A stretch of 64,000 nucleotides of DNA from Octopus vulgaris (Eukaryota), in the NCBI GenBank assembly GCA_951406725.2, contig OX597823.1:90458001-90522000 (forward strand), given 5' to 3'. The notes under the pieces were generated by a model. It had not been told where the DNA came from. It was given only the letters and a program-made list of their open reading frames with translations, and did not search any database. Shown here piece after piece: positions 1-55,480 of this stretch (position 1 is the stretch's first letter; the number at the start of each line of letters is the position of its first letter). The position numbers were made by a program, and so were the translations under genes.

Positions 1-40
1 TGTGCCACACACGATGTGCCACACACACATATATATATAT

Positions 41-83
<43 letters not shown>

Positions 84-1712: not shown

Positions 1713-2296
1713 GTTGAAGATTAGAGAAAATGGGTTTAAAAATATAAATATACAATCTCATCTTTACTAAATGGAAGTGAATGACCTTCAAATGTCTCTA
1801 GGAAAAACCTAATTTTCTTTTCTCACCAAATTTTTACAATGTTACCATTATCTCTAGTGAATTCACATTGCACTTTTAAGAGTGTGGAAATTGGTTCAAG
1901 AACTTGTTTCTCTGCTGAGGTGTGTGTGTGTGTGTGTGTAGTGGGGGGAACAGTTTATTTTACATTGGGAATTCATTGATGTTATTTATTAAACCAAGAA
2001 ACATTTTATTCTTGCCTGGCAGTTTCAAATTGAGATAATTCAGATAACCGATTATTATCAAATAAAGGAACTCTTTCTTCAGGCAACTCATATTTCTTTT
2101 AGAGAACTATATATGTATTTTTCCATTTCCAAAACCTACTCCAAGCCTGTCCTCCAGAAAGGCAGAGTAACCCACATTAGAAGATAAATTCTAAATTTAA
2201 TCTTTCATAATATTCTCTGAAGTCTTGTCTGTGGAATGTTCTCTCTTTTATTCTTTTAATGGTTTCATTCATACAACTTGTTCTGTTTTAATACAG

Positions 2297-2342
2297 AATT
2301 GCTAACTTGGATTACATTCCTCGAATGCAAGCCAATAATGGA
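2297..2342 (+). other. Candidate small internal exon
   Basis: Pyrimidine tract ending TACAG, 46 nt with two open frames (IANLDYIPRMQANNG or LLTWITFLECKPIM), then a GTGAGT donor; no homology recognised. Confidence 0.25.
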
Positions 2343-2589
2343 GTGAGTATGTGAGCAACTACAATGCAATATATACTCAAAAATGCACGCTGATTAAAAA
2401 AAGAAGCAGAACATAAAGATCCAGGTGCAAATGTATCGTGCCACTTACGAAACAAACCAATATACAAATTAGAAGGCAGTCCAAAGTTCACTTTAAAAGG
2501 ACACGAGTTGAACACACGAAATAAAGCAGAGTCACTAAACTTAGTTCAATACTTAGTCAGAACATAGAATTAAATAAGAGCAATATAAC

Positions 2590-3260
2590 AGGACTACTGC
2601 CATGCTGGAGCACCGCCTTAACTTATTTTCTATCAGTTTTGTTGTCGCTTTATGGCAGGAAGTTGGTCTACGATTGATTTTGTATCAGCTGATCTTCCCT
2701 GGCTGTATCCTCGAATGCTTAGCTGGTCTGGAATTATCGTTAGGAGTTTATCCAATGTTTTTTTAATGTTTCAGTCGAGGTTCCTTTCATATTTCTGGTT
2801 TCTTTAGGTAAGCAGTTGAATAATTGAGGACTTCTAAAACTGGTACAGCAGAGTGTTTTTGTTAACAATTTTGAAGGTGGTATATTTGACAGCTGAGGTC
2901 GACTTTACCATTCATCCTTTCGGGGTCAATAAATTAAGTACCAGTGATGCACTGGGGTCTATGTAATTGACATAATCCGTTTGTCTGTCCTTGTTTGTCC
3001 CCTCTATGTTTAGCCCCTCGTGGATAGTAAAGAAATAGGTATATTTGACAGCTGACATTATCAGTTCATGCATTAAAAATTCTCTCTAATACCAAAGTTT
3101 GGAACATGCCCTTCCAGAGTTTTCCATAAGTATATGATAGTACACTTCTCTTTTTGGCATCCAAGAAAGTAGAGATGCAGAGTTTTCAGACATTCCCAGT
3201 TATTAAAGCTTTCAACCACATTACCGGTGAATGTTCTTCCTAAGCCTTATTTAACACAAC
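2590..3260 (-). pseudogene. Decayed CR1-type LINE 3' fragment, interrupted by a SINE
   Basis: Minus strand reads ...YLWKTLEGHVPNFG...FRSPQLFNCLPKETRN...DKLLTIIPDQ, like the copy at 31020-31530; GGTGCTCCAGCATGGC tail. Confidence 0.7.
2897..3037 (+). mobile_element. 5'-truncated Meta-domain SINE with 18-bp target-site duplication
   Basis: GGTATATTTGACAGCTGA at 2879-2896 and 3038-3055; GTCGACTTT..CATCCTTTCGGGGTC..AAGTACCAG core. Confidence 0.85.
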
Positions 3261-3384
3261 ATTCTGTTGTATATGTAGACATGGTTGTATGTTTGGGAAG
3301 TTTGCTTCCCAGCCATGTGGTTTGGGGTAAGTATCTTCTACATGGGTAACTTTACACCAGTTTTGGGTAAGTATCTTTTACATA

Positions 3385-3620
3385 AGGCGGCGAGCTGGCA
3401 GAAACATTAGCATGCCGGGCAAAATGCTTAGCAGTTTTTCATCTGTCTTTACGTTTTGAGTTCAAATTCCGCCAAGGTCAACTTTGCCTTTCATCCTTTT
3501 GGGGTCGATAAATTAAGTACCAGTTACGCACTGGGTCGATGTAATTGACTTAATCCGTTTGTATGTCCTTGTTTGTCCCCCTCTATGTTTAGCCCCTTGT
3601 GGGCAATAACGAAATAAGAA
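3385..3620 (+). mobile_element. Full Meta-domain SINE nested in a family A SINE head
   Basis: GGCGGCGAGCTGGCAGAAAC head, GAGTTCAAATTCC B-box, Meta-like core; flanked by AAGTAT(C)TTTTACAT-like duplication. Confidence 0.8.
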
Positions 3621-4181
3621 AGTATTTTACATGGCCCTTGGTCAATCAAAACCTTGTGAGTGTGGATTTCATAGATGGAAACTGAAAGAAGCTTGTGATG
3701 CATGCATGTACATGTGTGTCATATTTCTTTTTCTTTTATTCTTTTACTTGTTTCAGGCAATGGCCATGCTGGAGCACTGCTTTCTTCTTAACATTTTTCT
3801 TTTACACATTCACATATTGTGGATGTTATTTCAGTTCACTTTTGAATCAAACCTGTTTTGGGTTCCTTCATAAAGCTGTGTTAGCATAAACTTTTGGATA
3901 AATTCGTTTGGCTGGTATTTTGTACTGCTTTCCTATATCTAAATAAGCTAGCACAATAGAAACAATCATTGGTAATGTATGGTGTAATCATAACACACAT
4001 GATCTGGCAATTGTTCATGTTCAAACATAGAGTACCCTATGCAAGCCAATCCAATTACCGTCTTATCCAAGCATGAAACTTGAAGTAGTTCATGTATAAC
4101 CTGTAGTCATTAAACTGGACTGAATATATTTTTGCTGATCCTATTAACAAACGAACACTATTTTATATGTACACACAATAT

Positions 4182-4237
<56 letters not shown>

Positions 4238-5045
4238 ATATATATATATATATATATCTTTATATATATATATTAAGCTATGTGTGTGTGTATATTTATA
4301 TATATATGTTGTAAGCTGTGTGTGTGTGCATGTATATGTACATACATACATATATATATATTATAATCTGTGTGTGTATATATATATATATATATTTAAA
4401 AAATATATGCACAGACAATGATGTTATGTTGAAGCAGATTAGTTAAATTTCATTTAAGTGGATAAAAATCAAATTATTTTGAAAAATATACTGACATATA
4501 AACATACAAACCGCATTCATATATAAGCACACACACACACACACACACACACAGACATGCACAGAGACACACACACAGAGACACACACACAGAGCGATAT
4601 ACATTTGAATTGAAATTTCATTAAAAAACAAAATAATACCAAGATTAAACTAAAACCCTGCAAACAATACCATAAGAGAAGAATGCAATAAAATACAACA
4701 ACAACAACAATTACAGTATTTTTATGAAGACTGACAACAACAACAACAACAACAACAAGAAACCCATCAGAAATAACCTGCTGTATTAACATCAGTGGTG
4801 GTGGAGGTGGTGGTGGTGGTAATGGTGGTGATGATGATGGTGGTGGTGGTGGTGGTGGTGGAACGCAACAGAGGTGAAATAAAGGAAGTAAAATGGCTGC
4901 TTATTGCATTAGTACATCAGCTGCATTAGTAAATCATATTAGTGTTGCCGCTATATTAATAATGGAGGGTGACAAAGACTAACAGTTAGACACTTTCATA
5001 CATTGATTTATACTCACTGACACACTGACGTATACACACACACAG

Positions 5046-5096
<51 letters not shown>

Positions 5097-5166
5097 CCAG
5101 CACACTTAACAATATGTGCATGTCTGTGTAACATATGTGAGTGTGTCTGTGTGTGCACATATATTC

Positions 5167-5199
<33 letters not shown>

Positions 5200-5547
5200 T
5201 ATATATACATAGATATATTGTATGCATGTGCGATGTGTGTGTGTATATCTATATAAGTATAAGTATGTGTGCATATATGTGTATGTTTGTGCATATCTAT
5301 GTATGTATGTGTGTATATATATGTATGTATATACACACATGCATACGCATATATTCTTCATGAATATTTTATACACACACACATACGCACTACTATATCT
5401 ATCTATCTATCAATTTATCTCACCACCACCACCACCACCACCACCATCATCATCATCAACATGTAGTGCCTGTTTCCCATGCTGGCACAAGTTGGACAGT
5501 TTGACAAGAGCTGGCAAGCCAGTGGTAGGTTGTGCCAAGCTCTGCTA

Positions 5548-5803
5548 CATTAGTTCTCAACAGGGGCCCACAGAACCCTTTGGGGTCTCTGTAAGGTTTT
5601 GTGATTAAAATTTAATTTGCAATAAATTGCTTATACTCCTAAAATGCATAAAATATTCTAACAATTATTTTTTTATACAATTCCTAATATTTAATTATAA
5701 AAATATAACAGGAATTTTTTAAAACATCGACTGGCTATAGGGGTCCCCTTGAATAAAATAGGGCAAAAGAGATTGATGAGTATAAAATGGCTGAGAACCA
5801 CTG
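5548..5803. mobile_element. hAT (Charlie-like) MITE
   Basis: Termini resemble CAGTGGTTCTCAA...TGAGAACCACTG. Confidence 0.55.
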
Positions 5804-6075
5804 CCCTAAGAGCAGGGTTTGGATGGAATTTGTTGAGGCAGATTTGCTTTGGCTGGATGCTCTTTCTGTCACTAACCTTCGTCTGTTTCCAAGCAAAGTA
5901 ATATTCCTCCATACCCTAACATAATTTCCATGGAAGACTAGGAATGAACAACATGGCTTTTAAGATGGTGATGTTCATCACATAATATATATAGACAAGG
6001 GGTCACATGCACTGATCCACATTCATATACATACACACACACACACATCTATCTATCTATATCTATCTATATATA

Positions 6076-12399: not shown

Positions 12400-12545
12400 A
12401 TTATTTACATTATTTACGTTTGACGGATATTTGTCCTCATCTTGTTTGTTGCTAACACAATGTTTCGGCTGATATACCCTCCAGCCTTCATCAGGTGTCT
12501 CGGGGAAATTTCGAACCTGGATTCTCATTTCTAAGGTTTTTTTAA

Positions 12546-25800: not shown

Positions 25801-26221
25801 ATAAGAAATATTGAATTTCTAAATCTCTCGTAGAGACATGTACGGTGGTGGGGCGATAGAATGGTTGTATACTGTCAATCTAACAAGAAAGTGACAGTAG
25901 GGGGTACACCATCGCTGTATAGCCCTCGGAAGCATCGAACGTCTCCTGATGGCTTTGACACATTTTTCCCTGTGTCCTTATATACATATACGAAGGGGAG
26001 ACAAACACCCCCGGCTGCCGAAACTGCATCTAGGGACACGTGTTTCAGGATCGTTGTCCTTCATCGGCCTAGAGTAGCAGACACCGGTCAACCGGTGATA
26101 TTTGTCTTGACTTCGTAATTGTATATATCTATACTCAGTGAAGTCTATTCACTGATTATCAAAATAAGAAATATTGAATTTCTAAATCTCTCGTAGAGAC
26201 ATGTATGGTGGTGGGGCGATA
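25801..26221 (-). mobile_element. Retrozyme-like unit: 363-bp monomer with 58-bp terminal direct repeat and a hammerhead
   Basis: 25801-25858 repeated at 26164-26221 (1 mismatch); HHR at 26029-26073; flanked by TA repeats. Confidence 0.7.
26029..26073 (-). ncRNA. Type I hammerhead ribozyme, U4C core variant
   Basis: TCTAGG-CCGATGA-AGGA caacga TCCT-GAAA-CACGTG-TC-CCTAGA. Confidence 0.75.
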
Positions 26222-26252: not shown

Positions 26253-27444
26253 ATGGAAGTAATGGAAGAATTGGTGACGCGCATCCTCGATGATAGTGAT
26301 GCTGTTGACATCGTTTTACTGGACTTTGCCAAAGCTTTTGACTCGGTAAACCACCGCCTATTACTTGTCAAGCTTCAAGCATATAGTTTCCATCCGGATA
26401 TTGTATGATGGGTTGGTGCCTTCCTCTCAGATCGCTCCTTCCAAGTCCAAGTTAATGGTTCGTGGTCCGACGTCTCCTGTGCGAGCAGTGGCGTGCCTCA
26501 AGGTTCAGTGCTTGGGCCCTTGTTGTTCTTAGTCTTCATAAATGACTTGCCCGACGACCTCACGCAACACACCCTTCTATTTGCCGACGATATCAAACTG
26601 GTCGCTCCTCGCGGTAATATAGAGGATCTTCGTTGATGCCTCCACCAAATTTGGAAGTGGTCTAACGATTGGGACCTGTGTCTGAACGTGTCAAAGTGCT
26701 GTCATCTGCCTGTCGGCTCTACTCCTGTAACTCAACTTGATTTCGAGCCGGGTCGTCTGCTGCTGGAGAGGACCGATCAGGTAAAGGACCTAGGTATCTT
26801 GGTGGATTCCTCCTTTTCGCCTTCGGCCCAGTGCGTCCATGCTGCCAACAAAGCATGCGGAATTCTGTTCTTGATTCGACGGTCATTCGGAATGCTCACA
26901 GCAGCCATATTCCTACCACTCTATGTCACGCTGGTGAGACCCATATTGGAGTATGGGATTCAAGCCTCTTCTCCTTATCTCCTCAAAGACATACAGCATC
27001 TCGAAAGAGTCCAGAAGCTGGCTACCCGCATGGTTCATGGTCTCAAAAATTTGTCCTACGAAGAAAGGCTGAGGACGCTCGACCTTTATTCTCTTGAAAA
27101 ACGCCGCCGCCGTAGTGATCTCATTCTCACCCACAACATCATAAGCGGAAAGTGTAACCTCTCGAAACAGCTGTTCTTCACTCCTGCTCCAGAGCGTCGG
27201 CTGCAGGGTCATTCCGAAAAGCTCTACCTGCGACGATTTCATCTCAATCGAAGGAGAGGAGCTTTCTCCATTCGGGTTGCGGATCCGTGGAACAAGCTGC
27301 CAGACGAGATGGTGAAGATGCCGACGACCGCTTTGTTCAAAGCCTCCCTGGACCTCAAGTGGCCTGAACTCTTTACATAAACACCACTCTGTACTTAACT
27401 CCATGTCCCCCTACATGGCCTTGCTATTTGCTTTTGAGCCAAAT

Positions 27445-31019: not shown

Positions 31020-31530
31020 ATTGATTTGATTTTTGATTTTTCCAGTTTCAGCTCATGAGCTGTGGCCATGCTGGGGCACCGCCATTTGGTTTGCTACATG
31101 ATTTTACCTCACGAATGCTTTTTAGCAACTGCCATTTGGTGCATGAGAGAGTTCGATGCAGCTGCCCTCATCTGCACCTCCTGCCGTGAAGTTGGTTCAT
31201 CCGGGACACCTGACAGGAAGAGATCCAGTCCTACTTTAAAGACATCCGCATCTACACCATGCAGGTCCCTCAGGTTCTTCGGGAGGATATTGAAGAGCTG
31301 TGGGCCTCTGAAGCCCAGGCTATCACAGTATCTTGTCCTACATCTTGATGGCAAATTTGGAGTCCTTGGTACCACGCATTGGTGCCCGGTTCTGGCATTT
31401 GTGTGACTCTCGATGCCAAAGTTTGGGACGAGTCCTTCCAGGATCTTCTAGATATATATTATGGCATATCTTTCTTGCCTACGCTCCAAGGAATAGAGTT
31501 TTAATCTCTTGAGTCTTTCCCAGTAGCTGG
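31020..31530 (-). pseudogene. CR1-type LINE 3' fragment
   Basis: SYWERLKRLKLYSLERRQERY..LEGLVPNFG..FRGPQLFNILPKNLR..FKVGLDLFLSGVPDEP; tail GGTGCCCCAGCATGGCCACAG. Confidence 0.85.
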
Positions 31531-32499: not shown

Positions 32500-32857
32500 T
32501 CATCATCATCATTGTTCGACGGTGGTCGAGACAATGGAATTTACCATGCTACGCCAGACTTCACGGTCCATCATGGCATTATGGAGGTCCTGTTGCTGGA
32601 TGCCTGTATCCCTGGAGATTACATCAGGGTAGGAGAGTGTGCGCCCTCTGGTATTGCGAGTAGATGGCTTCCAGAGGAGAAGAATAGAAATTACCTCTTT
32701 TTCAGCTCTACAACAATGTCCAGCAAACTGGACTCTTCTACCTTTCACAAGAGATGACACAGGTGGTAGTTTCCCATATATTTGCATTTTGGTTGGATGG
32801 TGCTTCCACGAGAGATTTTGAGCTCTCATAAGGAGGCGAGTGTAGGTTCCATCTCAA
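32500..32857 (-). pseudogene. RTE-group LINE C-terminal fragment (second family)
   Basis: DGTYTRLLMRAQNLSWK..RRVQFAGHC..LLLWKP..MMDREVWR; (TGA)n tail. Confidence 0.8.
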
Positions 32858-38901: not shown

Positions 38902-39020
38902 TAATACTGAAAAATATAAAAATTAAAAAAAAGCACATGCACCATGCATACACAGACACATGTTCAAATATATGCACACACACACACACACAGAGGAAAA
39001 CAAATAACAAGAAGTAAAAA

Positions 39021-39120
39021 NNNNNNNNNNNNNNNNNNNNNNNNNNNNNNNNNNNNNNNNNNNNNNNNNNNNNNNNNNNNNNNNNNNNNNNNNNNNNNNN
39101 NNNNNNNNNNNNNNNNNNNN
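39021..39120. other. Assembly gap (100 N)
   Basis: Run of N. Confidence 1.
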
Positions 39121-43605: not shown

Positions 43606-43737
43606 ATTTATTATATAGAAGGAGCTTCTACAGGACTAGAACTGTTTCATTCAAATGAAATCATCAGGAAGCTTCCTGATGATTTCATTTGAATGAAACA
43701 GTTCTAGTCCTGTAGAAGCTCCTTCTATATAATAAAT
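43606..43737. ncRNA. Perfect 132-bp palindrome encoding a type I hammerhead on each strand
   Basis: Centre AAG|CTT at 43671/43672; plus-strand HHR 43670-43720 AGCTTC-CTGATGA-TTTCATTTGAAT-GAAA-CAG ttctagtc CTG-TA-GAAGCT. Confidence 0.8.
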
Positions 43738-48846: not shown

Positions 48847-49932
48847 TTTATATTCATAGAATTTAGTTGAGATTATTTCATAGAGAAAAATATGAACTAT
48901 CTCCGAAAATGTCATTCTTATCAGCTTTCATTGCAAAGGTTACATTTATGAATGTGTGTGTATATTTATATATATGTATGTGTGTATATATTTATATTTA
49001 TATATATATATATATATATACACACTCACATATATATATATACACATATATATATACACACACATATATTTGTAATTATACATGTATGTATGAATGTATA
49101 TGAGACTTCATAATCATCCTCACCATTTTCATTTATACATCCGCTTTTCCAGGTGGGCATGGTTAGGGTGTGTCTTTTCTTTAGCACAGTTTTCCTTCCC
49201 ATTCACTGCAATCGTTTACAATTTCCTTTCTGAGCATCCACCTCATGGAATCATTTGTCAACACTTCTCTTTATGTCAGGTCACTTGTGAGGTGTTTTTC
49301 ATGAGTGCTATTGGCAACTTGGGATCCAGTACAACCTGTTGCATGGCCAGGTCGTTGGTGACTAAACCTGCACTCCCACTAGGACAGCTTGGTGAGGGAG
49401 GGTTGCTGGAAACCCAGCAGGACTGAAAATAAGACCTGACCAAAAGACAGATGAACCTAGTGTATGTTTAACAATATCTAGCAACAGCACAATCTTAGTC
49501 TGACTACTAAACCCTTCCCCTCTGACACTCATAAATACATAAAAACCAAAAACAATATATGCTTCATTATGTTTTATTATGCATGTGTACACTTGCACAT
49601 ACATATTTATGTACACACACACACATACACACATAGATATGTTCATATATCTATATATCTTAGAAATTCCAAGTTGGTGTCTGGTGTGCAGGAAACCATC
49701 TTAGCTTTTGTTCACCATCTTAGCTTTTTGTTAATTGCTGATCCTCTGTTTAAATGGACCCTTAATTTATAAGGGTATAAAACAAATATTTGACACAAAT
49801 ATTGATTTCTGTATGATCTGTATCAAACAATGAAGCTTGTTCTTAACGCGTATGCAGTCTGCATGAAACGAATTTAAATGATGCCCTTCCTAACACCAAC
49901 CACTCAGCACCACCACCATGTCTGTGCATATA

Positions 49933-49980
<48 letters not shown>

Positions 49981-50040
49981 CACACATGAATGAATGGACA
50001 AATGAAAAAAGGGCACTCAACAAATTTATTGGGAGTTACA

Positions 50041-50219
50041 TGTATGGATCAAAACAGTTTTATTCAAATTCGTTGGTACTCTTGAGTTTCAAGAATGATG
50101 ATAGTCATGAGCCATTTCGAATTTGAATTTGAATCAAATTCAAAATGGCTGATGACTAGCATCATGCTTGAAACTCAAGAGTACCAACAAATTTGAATAA
50201 AACTGTTTTGATCCATACA
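50041..50219. mobile_element. Fold-back element with an intact hammerhead core in the right arm
   Basis: Arms 50041-50126 and 50134-50219; HHR 50146-50186 TGG-CTGATGA-ctAGCAtcaTGCTt-GAAA-CTC aa GAG-TA-CCA. Confidence 0.8.
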
Positions 50220-52204
50220 CATACATACATACAAACATACATACATATATACATACATATATACATGTGTGTGTGTGTGTGCGTGTGTATACAAACACAT
50301 ACATACACACAGAGATTCAGACAGTCACACATATGCTTATGTGCATATATATTTCTGCTCAACCTTCACATCTTTCTTCCTTCCTTCCTTCTTTCTTTCC
50401 TTCCATTCCTGTAGATGTATCTATTTGGTCTTTCATCTTTAATGACAAGAATCCATTTTGCTAATTGCTTAATAGTGGTGATGGTGGTGGTAGTGGGGAT
50501 GGTTGTAGTGGTAGTGTTAGTGATAGAAGTGATGATGGTGGTGGTGGTGGGAAGACAAAAACAAGAAAAAGTAGAAAGATGAAAAAGCAGATGCAATAAA
50601 ACAACAAAACAACAGCAGCAGCAGCAAATGATAGGAATTAAATTGCTGTTATGTGACACCTGTAGAAGTGAAACCTTGATTTAAAGTGCTTCAAAATGTG
50701 TAAAGGTGAGTATTTATGTGTGTGGGGGTGTGAGTACATGTATACATGTATGTGTGTGAGTGTTTGTGTGCATGTATGTGTATGCATGTGTAAAAGTGTG
50801 TGAGTGCGTGTGTTTATGTGTGTGTGTATATATGAGCGCATGTGTGTTTGTGTGTGGGTGTATATATATATATATACATACATATGCACAAGAGTGCATG
50901 CACATTTGCATGCATCTGTGCATGTGTGTGAGTACATGTATATATGTTTGTTAGTATGTGTGTGTGTATGAGTGCATGTATGTGTGTGAGTGCAATATGC
51001 ACATGTGTCTGTATATGTGTATATAATTAATCAGTCACAGAAGAACGATGGTGTCATGACCTTTGCATCTTCCTCCTCGACTCAGTGCTTCATGTGCAGT
51101 TCTCACTTCTCATAGTTTGATGCCTTCAGCAAAAGAGACTCTGTGTAGGAAGTAGGGTGGAGTACCAAAAGGTCGTAATGAAACTGTTATGCAGAAAAAT
51201 TGGGATAAAATTGTAAAAGGGTTTCGTAGGGAGCATACGAGATGTCACAGAGATGGTGATAGTGTTGTTTAGATGATCAAGGACTGTCCAGCCATGCCCA
51301 GCTATCTTATATTAAGATATTGCATTCAAGACTACATTATCAAATGTGTCCGTCATTGCTTAAGATGGCAGAGATTGTAGTGAGGTGGGGTGGCCTAGTG
51401 GTTTAGGGTGTTGCACTCAGGATTGCAAGGTCCTTGTTTCAATTCCTGGGCCAGGCTGTGCATAACGTTCTTGAGCAAAATCTCCCCATTTCACATTGCT
51501 CCAGTTTACTCAGCTGTAAATGAGTTCCTGCAAAATCTAGGGAGTTAACCCTGTGATGGACTAGCATTCTATTCTGGGGGAAGTGTTATAATCTCAATCA
51601 CTTATATCATGCAAACCAGTTTAAGCCCTGGATTTATCATTCCTAGGGTGCATGATGTACTTATGTTTAAGTGATTTGTTAGAGATTTTACTTCTATTAC
51701 AATCAGAAGCTACAACCAGATTTCCACTATACCAAAGCTGCTCATTAATTAGTTGGAATTATGTAAATTTTACTAAAAGAAAGCTATTGTTAAAGTCTAC
51801 AACTGTACAAATAGTTCTTTAAAATTTTAATTTTAATATATTTTTATCAAAATGTGATTTTTTTAGTTTCTGTATTATTGAAGATTTCAATCACAAAAAA
51901 CTAATTTTAATTCATTGTGAAGTTCTGTTCTTTACACTGCAAAATAGCTTTCCCTCTTTGTCCACTATTTCTCTCTCTCTCACTCTTATAGTTAGGATGA
52001 TAACATGAAATCTGTTATAAGTCTCAGATAGTTAATTTCTCCAATGAGATTGCTGTTACTGTTATTGTAGTTCATATGATGAACAAGAATAAAAAATATT
52101 ATTTCCCATCTCTGTACATATGTAATTGCGTGTTTATAGAAGGTTCTTAATATTAAAATGTACAAATGTGTGTGTGTGTATGTATATATGTATATATACA
52201 TACA

Positions 52205-54597: not shown

Positions 54598-55480
54598 TTA
54601 AAAATTTTTTCCTTTCCCTTGGTGTGAATTTCTCTGTATCAGTATGTTCGGATGGTTGAGTCTGGGCTTGTACTTTTCAATGAAGAATGTTTCCTTGTTT
54701 AGTCTAATTTGTGTTGATGATCCGAAAGCACATTGGTAAAATGGAAAGATTAAAAATTGTGGTAGTAGTTGCTTTGCGCATTTCTCAATGTGCTCACTAA
54801 AAGGTATCATTCTATATTCTGGGAATGCAATCTGTTGTTGATGCAGTGTGCATCTACGTCTGAGTGATAGTCCCGTGGAACCCACGTAGTCTTGGTGGTA
54901 GCCCGATCATTTTATGACATAAATTATGTTTTCAGAGGCACAAGTAAAGTTAGATTTGATCTTGAATTTCTGTCCCTCTTTAAAGAGGAATTCTGATCCT
55001 TCTAGCAGGTTAGGACATGTTGCACAGTTCGATCTACCACATTTTTTTACTTTTGCATCCGTAATTTCAGAAGACAATTTTGCCTTTGTGAGAATCTTTT
55101 TAAGTGATTTAGGCTGTTTGTAGCTTTTAATGATTTGGTGTATGTTTAGAATTTCCTTTAATTTGGGGTCTTTATGAAGTATTGGTAAATTCTGGGTGAT
55201 GATGGTGAAGGCTTCTTTGTTTCTGGGGTTGTATGTAGATATGTAAGGTAGTATTTTCGGGGAAGGTGTGTTGTTGTGTTGAACTTTTCTTAAAGTTTCT
55301 ATGTTGATTTCTGTTGCACGTCTGATCCCATCCTCTATGAGTTGAGCTGGGTAATGTCTGTCAATTAGGGTGTTTTTGAGTTCTTGCAGTCTAAAGTTCC
55401 TGGTATTTGTTCTGATACTATTGTGCATATCCTTCTTGCAAGGTTGAAGGGGATGTTTGTTTTAGTGTGTCTTGGGTGGC
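54598..55480 (-). pseudogene. Penelope ORF C-terminus: thumb/linker plus GIY-YIG endonuclease
   Basis: HPRHTK.NIP..LARRIC, YP, LPY, CGRSNCATC, FTCASENIIYVIK*..YVGST..LRRR..H..HI..RLNKETFFI..P.LN; one frameshift and one stop. Confidence 0.9.

Follow-up and report, generated by a model that had tools for sequence, protein, structure and literature searches.

A fold-back with hammerhead motifs in Octopus vulgaris is probably a decayed inverted insertion of Hydra-clade Penelope-like element ends

The fold-back described here lies in a 64,000-nt stretch of Octopus vulgaris DNA that was analysed as a whole (the window). It consists of two inverted arms, 50041-50126 and 50134-50219, each 86 nt long, which are 94% complementary with 5 differences and are separated by 7 nt. 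A sequence-only reading had set its extent at 50041..50219; the arms are indeed there, but the insertion really runs from about 49987 to 50217, with a 55-nt tail beyond 50041 that the left arm has and the right arm lacks. The long, tailed arm (49987..50128, minus strand) is a pLTR fragment covering element positions -1 to about 140, with position 1 at 50126; it comprises the tail (49988..50042, minus strand; positions 85-139) and a hammerhead (50062..50128, minus strand). The short, tail-less arm (50134..50217, plus strand) covers positions 1 to about 84, with position 1 at 50134, and holds a type I hammerhead motif at 50134..50196 with a predicted cut after 50183. The 5′ end of the left arm falls at -1 and that of the right arm at +1, and the two are joined by TTGAA (50129..50133), a short local duplication. 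Both target flanks are, by their sequence, microsatellite, (TG)n/(TA)n/(CA)n at 49929..49986 and (CATA)n/(TA)n/(TG)n at 50218..50290, and nucleotides 50218-50219 can be assigned to either arm or microsatellite. A rare non-CpG change, C66A, is common to both arms.

All of the motifs that had been read in the right arm (CTGATGA, GAAA, AGCA/TGCT, CTC/GAG and GUA) are in place. On the plus strand, distal helix I is formed by 50134-40 and 50190-96 (TCAAATT/AATTTGA) and helix I by 50146-48 and 50184-86 (TGG/CCA), followed by the core CTGATGA (50149-55), an extra C (50156), a U·U opposition (50157/50169), helix II (50158-61 AGCA with 50165-68 TGCT), GAAA (50170-73), helix III (50174-76 CTC with 50179-81 GAG, closed by a 2-nt loop, AA) and the GUA site (50181-83). 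A hammerhead would cut after A50183, the position that had been predicted. The proposed extension of helix I is also borne out, since a divergent subfamily keeps the distal helix through a two-sided change, as judged by inspection. The right arm has the CUGAnGA core, GAAA and a UH site, whereas the left arm, as the earlier reading had recognised, carries G5C (at 50109) and a helix II broken at 50101 and 50094. The better preservation of the right arm is likewise confirmed by 1 non-CpG change from the family majority versus 4 in the left arm. In addition to that one change, three CpG sites of the right arm depart from the majority (T50153, T50165 and A50189), of which T50165 creates the fourth pair of helix II and A50189, a G>A change, removes a C-G pair from distal helix I. 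The description of the motif as a canonical type I hammerhead stands as to type, but not as to canonical form, in that the U·U and the extra C replace G10.1-C11.1 and loop III has only 2 nt. Because C50156 and T50157 face the single T50169, no 10.1-11.1 pair closes helix II.

The window contains several other hammerhead cores. A structure descriptor found 5 perfect-core sites in it, versus 0 in each of 20 shuffles, while Rfam gave no match at the gathering score anywhere in the 64-kb window. These sites, the complementarity of the arms and the genome-wide repetition of the sequence described below establish that a fold-back with hammerhead motifs is real. That it has the most canonical core in the window does not hold, since other sites have features that the right arm lacks: at 12494(-), G10.1 and C11.1 are truly paired and helix II has 5 bp, with a 15.2/16.2 mismatch, 57178(-) has a G·U at 10.1-11.1, and a second fold-back at about 43606-43737 has identical arms, 43676(+) and 43667(-), both with intact CTGATGA/GAAA cores. 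The latter has T opposite T at the base of helix II, a 6-bp helix I, a GUA site and a 3-bp helix III with an 8-nt loop III; it belongs to a different family and is arguably the better monomer candidate. Since the other cores pair or wobble at 10.1-11.1 or leave more room in loop III, while all being defective in some other respect, which of them counts as most canonical depends on the criterion preferred. Other families are represented by additional hammerhead-like cores at 57178-57152, 12494-12454, 26067-26035, 702-675 and 58443-58415, all on the minus strand; the one at 26067(-) has a CCGATGA variant, a 6-bp helix I and a GUC site. Among other features of the window, a 184-codon frame with a CxxC motif at 54907-55461(-) resembles what we take to be the thumb-linker region of another Penelope-like element, and frames at 26637-27380(+), 31109-31447(-) and 32509-32853(-) resemble C-terminal fragments of LINE ORF2. 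A Pfam search of 4 window ORFs returned nothing relevant, one sub-threshold SIR2 hit being taken as chance, and a run of N at about 39,000-39,120, visible in an ORF translation, marks an assembly gap.

A search of the 2.8-Gb genome with the arm gave 1340 first-look candidates, 40 of which were scored; a 35-letter core pattern has 57 exact matches and a downstream 23-mer has 362. On its sequence, the window insertion is assigned to one Hydra-clade Penelope-like family with more than a thousand pLTR copies, a parent element that the sequence-only reading had not named. Longer copies extend upstream via a low-complexity 3′ UTR into a decayed ORF, the majority translation of which, over 30 ORF-selected loci, contains a reverse transcriptase with FDIVDFYPS and YRDD, a thumb with RxIIWYNPPF, a Cys linker and an endonuclease that lacks CCHH and in which E is preceded by CxxC and N is followed by CxH (CQLC..E, N..CCH). 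The RWK and DKT motifs are found in the longest copies (L037, L238 and others), and the CxCX5C linker reads CNCRNPTIC in L238, although its second C is a Phe codon in 15 of the 30 copies and a Cys codon in 8. In L238, (TA)n leads into an inverted short arm and a pLTR, after which come the ORF and, about 3.17 kb from the first, another pLTR; direct repeats at 2095-2660 and 5264-5840 flank a single, frameshifted ORF in which the reverse transcriptase precedes a C-terminal GIY-YIG-type endonuclease, recognised by its motifs. The window arms are 84-91% identical to L238, the long arm matching its 3′ pLTR at 85.7% over 140 nt and the short arm its pLTR at 90.7%. In tandem units (L157, L152, L159 and L163) the tail continues into the 5′ UTR, with about 60 nt to the ORF ATG. 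A Pfam search with 3 frameshifted ORF fragments of the family had no hits, and no ORF was intact among the loci translated. The near-complete unit of L238 spans 1956-5947, and its 3′ end is repeated locally over 109 nt at 99% identity. Two groups of near-identical copies, L056/L058 about 32 kb apart and L158/L162/L164 about 18.5 kb apart, are probably segmental tandem duplications.

Placement of the family in the Hydra clade relies on motifs and on by-eye comparison with published proteins rather than on a tree. RWK, DKT, a CxCX5C linker and the lack of CCHH are the diagnostics given for this clade by Craig et al. (2021, PMC8557442), who also report that Hydra elements insert in (TA)n. The octopus family has these motifs, with CxxC and CxH beside the E and N of the endonuclease, and it shows insertion in (TA)n, an inverted 5′-truncated copy and a tail on one end.

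The inequality of the two arms in the window is a property of the family. Arm 3′ ends fall in two groups, at about 81-91 and about 127-141, after which TA-rich microsatellite begins. One short and one tailed arm were found in 20 of 24 inverted pairs in a first set, the exceptions being 3 pairs with a truncated arm and a sole tail/tail case that is a tandem continuation, and in 22 of 24 pairs in a set picked by the exact 23-mer, with two loci common to both sets (binomial p 2e-5 and 6e-6, truncated pairs set aside). The window insertion obeys this rule, and the layout is the tail and inverted-copy signature already known. Within 24 pairs, 6 non-CpG changes are shared versus a null mean of 2.0, a weak signal (p 0.007) that fits either one template or later gene conversion. 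In vitro, the Penelope element of the anole initiates at two internal sites that bound the tail, both DNA strands are cut and uncut RNA serves as the template (PMC11167929).

An alignment of 166 arms has T opposite T at the base of helix II in 157, from which U·U at 10.1-11.1 is taken as ancestral. This is also the commonest published form in the clade, being present in 14 of 25 Hydra families listed in PMC8557442, and for that reason the ancestral ribozyme likely worked as a dimer or with a protein. Subfamilies vary at N7 (C, A, G), at the extra base (C, T) and in loop III (AA, A, G), and one has CCGAAGA (U4C) with the other core bases kept; this variation around a kept core and distal helix I suggests that the parent elements were selected for the fold. 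The genomic copies behave differently. In 43 arms not chosen for ribozyme likeness, two of which are duplicates, core positions have 20 substitutions in 359 (5.6%), compared with 48 in 774 (6.2%) in the 3′ flank and 66 in 213 (31%) at CpG sites. Intact cores were found in 15 of 35 arms, again not chosen for ribozyme likeness. No selection on the cores is seen in these genomic copies, where core positions decay as fast as the flanks, and the ribozyme decays neutrally after insertion.

The 5′ ends of the arms were examined in a set of 96 picked only by sequence downstream of the ribozyme, so as to avoid selection on the ribozyme itself. The set comprises 67 arms from 97 of the first 100 listed 23-mer matches, with 31 re-amplified copies collapsed to one, and 29 other loci. 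The collapsed copies, at 31 of the 97 loci including L122 and L124-L129, carry a fragment of positions 47-87 whose recurrence across chromosomes with the same upstream flank indicates one old insertion re-amplified inside another repeat. Arms start at -3..+2 in 16 of the 96, which corresponds to 0.068 per nt at risk versus 0.0042 upstream and 0.011 at 3..56 (Poisson p about 1e-8 against the 3..56 rate), with alignment ends that wobble by about 2 nt in AT-rich flanks. Around the cut site (49..53) only 2 of 96 arms start, which is no excess. Other templates must also exist, as 29 of the 96 arms run upstream of -3. A spliced template behind the pile-up was considered and rejected, as neither an AG acceptor nor any upstream sequence common to the copies was seen. 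At -3..+2 the family reads TCATTC, which we take to fit the initiator consensus TCAKTY. The pLTRs of Penelope hold an internal promoter with an initiator (PMC2377424). These DNA ends and the 6-nt consensus make -1 a possible transcript start; what they provide is a sharp 5′ boundary without a signal at the cut site and a precise candidate start.

The same pile-up is explained equally well by a stall of new DNA folding back on itself or on its partner, since the base of distal helix I falls on -1 too. Under this explanation the element is the same, and the stub would come from a longer transcript, of which it represents the 3′ pLTR. Complementarity exists between -1..8 and 56..65, in some pairs (L150, L197 and L062) a start at -3..6 is joined to one at 56..59, and junctions often overlap at AATT. 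However, such a junction occurs in only 2 of the 24 pairs of the 23-mer set, the tail in L062 is on the arm starting at 59 while the other arm has none, which self-priming of one copy cannot give, and the initiator-like TCATTC lies exactly at -3..+2. We regard the stall as a serious minority possibility. A very different origin, as a free-standing non-autonomous unit (a retrozyme or MITE-like palindrome), a local inverted duplication or an assembly artefact, might be thought of because most copies are short and ORF-less, because an inverted partner accompanies 24 of 66 independent arms, with a total length of 73-275 nt, and because none of the listed contigs, which are dominated by other family copies, bridges the exact junction. 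Such a unit should have a fixed internal junction and, if a retrozyme, tandem non-coding monomers each with a hammerhead, but neither is seen, and the arms are inverted, unequal by exactly the tail and collinear with the pLTR of a coding element, so that L238 largely refutes it; an assembly mirror would not differ at 5 sites between its arms. We consider any origin of this kind extremely improbable.

It had further been proposed that the right arm is tertiary-stabilised and the best candidate for activity as it stands. A working monomeric hammerhead at this locus has in its favour all invariant core bases, the GUA site, a 4-bp helix II, a 7-bp distal helix I and closeness to the family majority. 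It is opposed by the missing 10.1-11.1 pair, by the distal helix weakened at 50189 and by a 3-bp helix III whose 2-nt loop leaves it a pair probability of 0.18, short of what a stable monomer needs. In the predicted fold of the right arm, UGAUG of the core pairs with CAUCA, including helix II bases, in a stem that competes with the ribozyme; this fold is no more stable than chance (shuffle z -0.76 and -1.24). Forcing the ribozyme fold costs 5.4 kcal/mol in the isolated right arm and 61 kcal/mol in a read-through RNA (-59.4 versus -120.4 kcal/mol), although these energies ignore tertiary contacts and are uncalibrated against a known active hammerhead. In the read-through RNA the motif is predicted to be buried in an 86-bp hairpin, and on the plus strand the antisense arm is transcribed first and would capture the right arm. 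The two arms are on opposite strands, so the window copy can form no cis dimer. Single minimal hammerheads of metazoans showed no cleavage and their dimers weak cleavage (PMC4209133), and the hammerhead of the anole Penelope-like element cleaved only with protein (PMC11167929), so that published single metazoan Penelope hammerheads have low or no activity. Together with the lack of selection on cores in the copies, these points make a working monomer here quite improbable, if slightly less so than a non-autonomous or artefactual origin. The window copy is probably inactive on these models, and an isolated right-arm transcript may cleave weakly, because every invariant core base is kept.

The locus holds an old, unselected insertion in a microsatellite, pLTR-derived and inverted with one short and one tailed arm. 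The best explanation, which we judge very likely, including its mechanism and the inactivity of the window copy, is that one insertion event, since decayed, placed two end fragments of a Hydra-clade Penelope-like element head to head in a TA-rich microsatellite. According to this explanation, the endonuclease of the element would nick both target strands, one nick would prime reverse transcription at about 84 and the other at about 139, both cDNAs would run through the ribozyme on RNA uncut by the hammerhead, often stopping at -1, most likely the RNA 5′ end, and the two copies would be joined head to head at short AT-rich microhomologies. The ribozyme of the parent element would likely have worked when the hammerheads of two tandem pLTRs dimerised or when a protein assisted. 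A more specific version is tentative, and we think it somewhat less likely than the stall: the mini fold-backs of the family would be relics of twin reverse transcription on an uncut, capped RNA that begins with the hammerhead, which makes up its first 65 nt, and the two internal initiation sites would lie just 85 and 140 nt from that 5′ end. If this were true, the ribozyme, lying right where the transcript begins, would be a slow switch gated by a protein or by dimerisation, and the Hydra-type U·U core, with its extra bulge and distal helix I, would represent a variant that is active without G10.1-C11.1. The locus alone, a decayed stub in a family of more than a thousand copies, is of little weight. 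The family, in contrast, lends genome-scale support to a picture of two start sites and an uncut template that has so far been shown in vitro for one Penelope element, and it offers a natural hammerhead class with U·U at 10.1-11.1. We found no biochemical test of this class in the literature, although the dimeric variants of Penelope-like elements of Lunse et al. (2017) could bear on it, and the informative substrate for an assay would be a tandem pLTR pair rather than the window copy.

The insertion adds a new family to an established clade, and its layout is of a kind already described. Besides PMC8557442, our literature search found nothing joining octopus, hammerhead ribozyme and Penelope. 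In the portions of that paper bearing on the Hydra clade, published proteins have the same stretches as the octopus family, as judged by eye, and the elements likewise have a hammerhead near the 3′ end, a (TA)n target and an inverted 5′-truncated copy with a tail. The shape of the octopus hammerhead matches that of Penelope-3_HM (atgg ctgatga t ... t gaa actc a gagt), whereas the listed Hydra-1_Obim has a different hammerhead and is not this family. The unit of about 3.17 kb (L238) and the tail of 55 nt exceed the sizes typical of the clade (under 3 kb and 30-40 nt), and the hammerhead differs by carrying one further unpaired nucleotide ahead of helix II, by a helix II of 3 bp and, in the window subfamily, by a 2-nt loop III. 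As in the pLTR hammerheads of metazoan Penelope-like elements described by Cervera and de la Pena (2014, PMC4209133, in the sections on these motifs), the octopus motif is type I with short helices I and III and an extra base after A9, occurs mostly solo or in opposite-strand pairs and would need a dimer; it lacks their conserved G10.1-C11.1 pair and has a distal extension of helix I, and its dimer would have central A·A mismatches, as loop III (AA) is not palindromic. The animal non-LTR retrozymes of Li, Clavereau and Pollet (2026, 10.64898/2026.07.22.740005), as outlined there, are similarly non-coding, type I and derived from Penelope-like pLTRs, but the octopus insertion is a truncated piece of a coding element without a tandem monomer. 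A further parallel is PAc, the Anolis Poseidon element of Frangieh et al. (2024, PMC11167929), in which two fixed ends also bound a tail 3′ of the hammerhead, the target is AT-rich and copies run through the cut site, although PAc belongs to a different clade and its ORF starts inside the hammerhead rather than about 60 nt after the tail.
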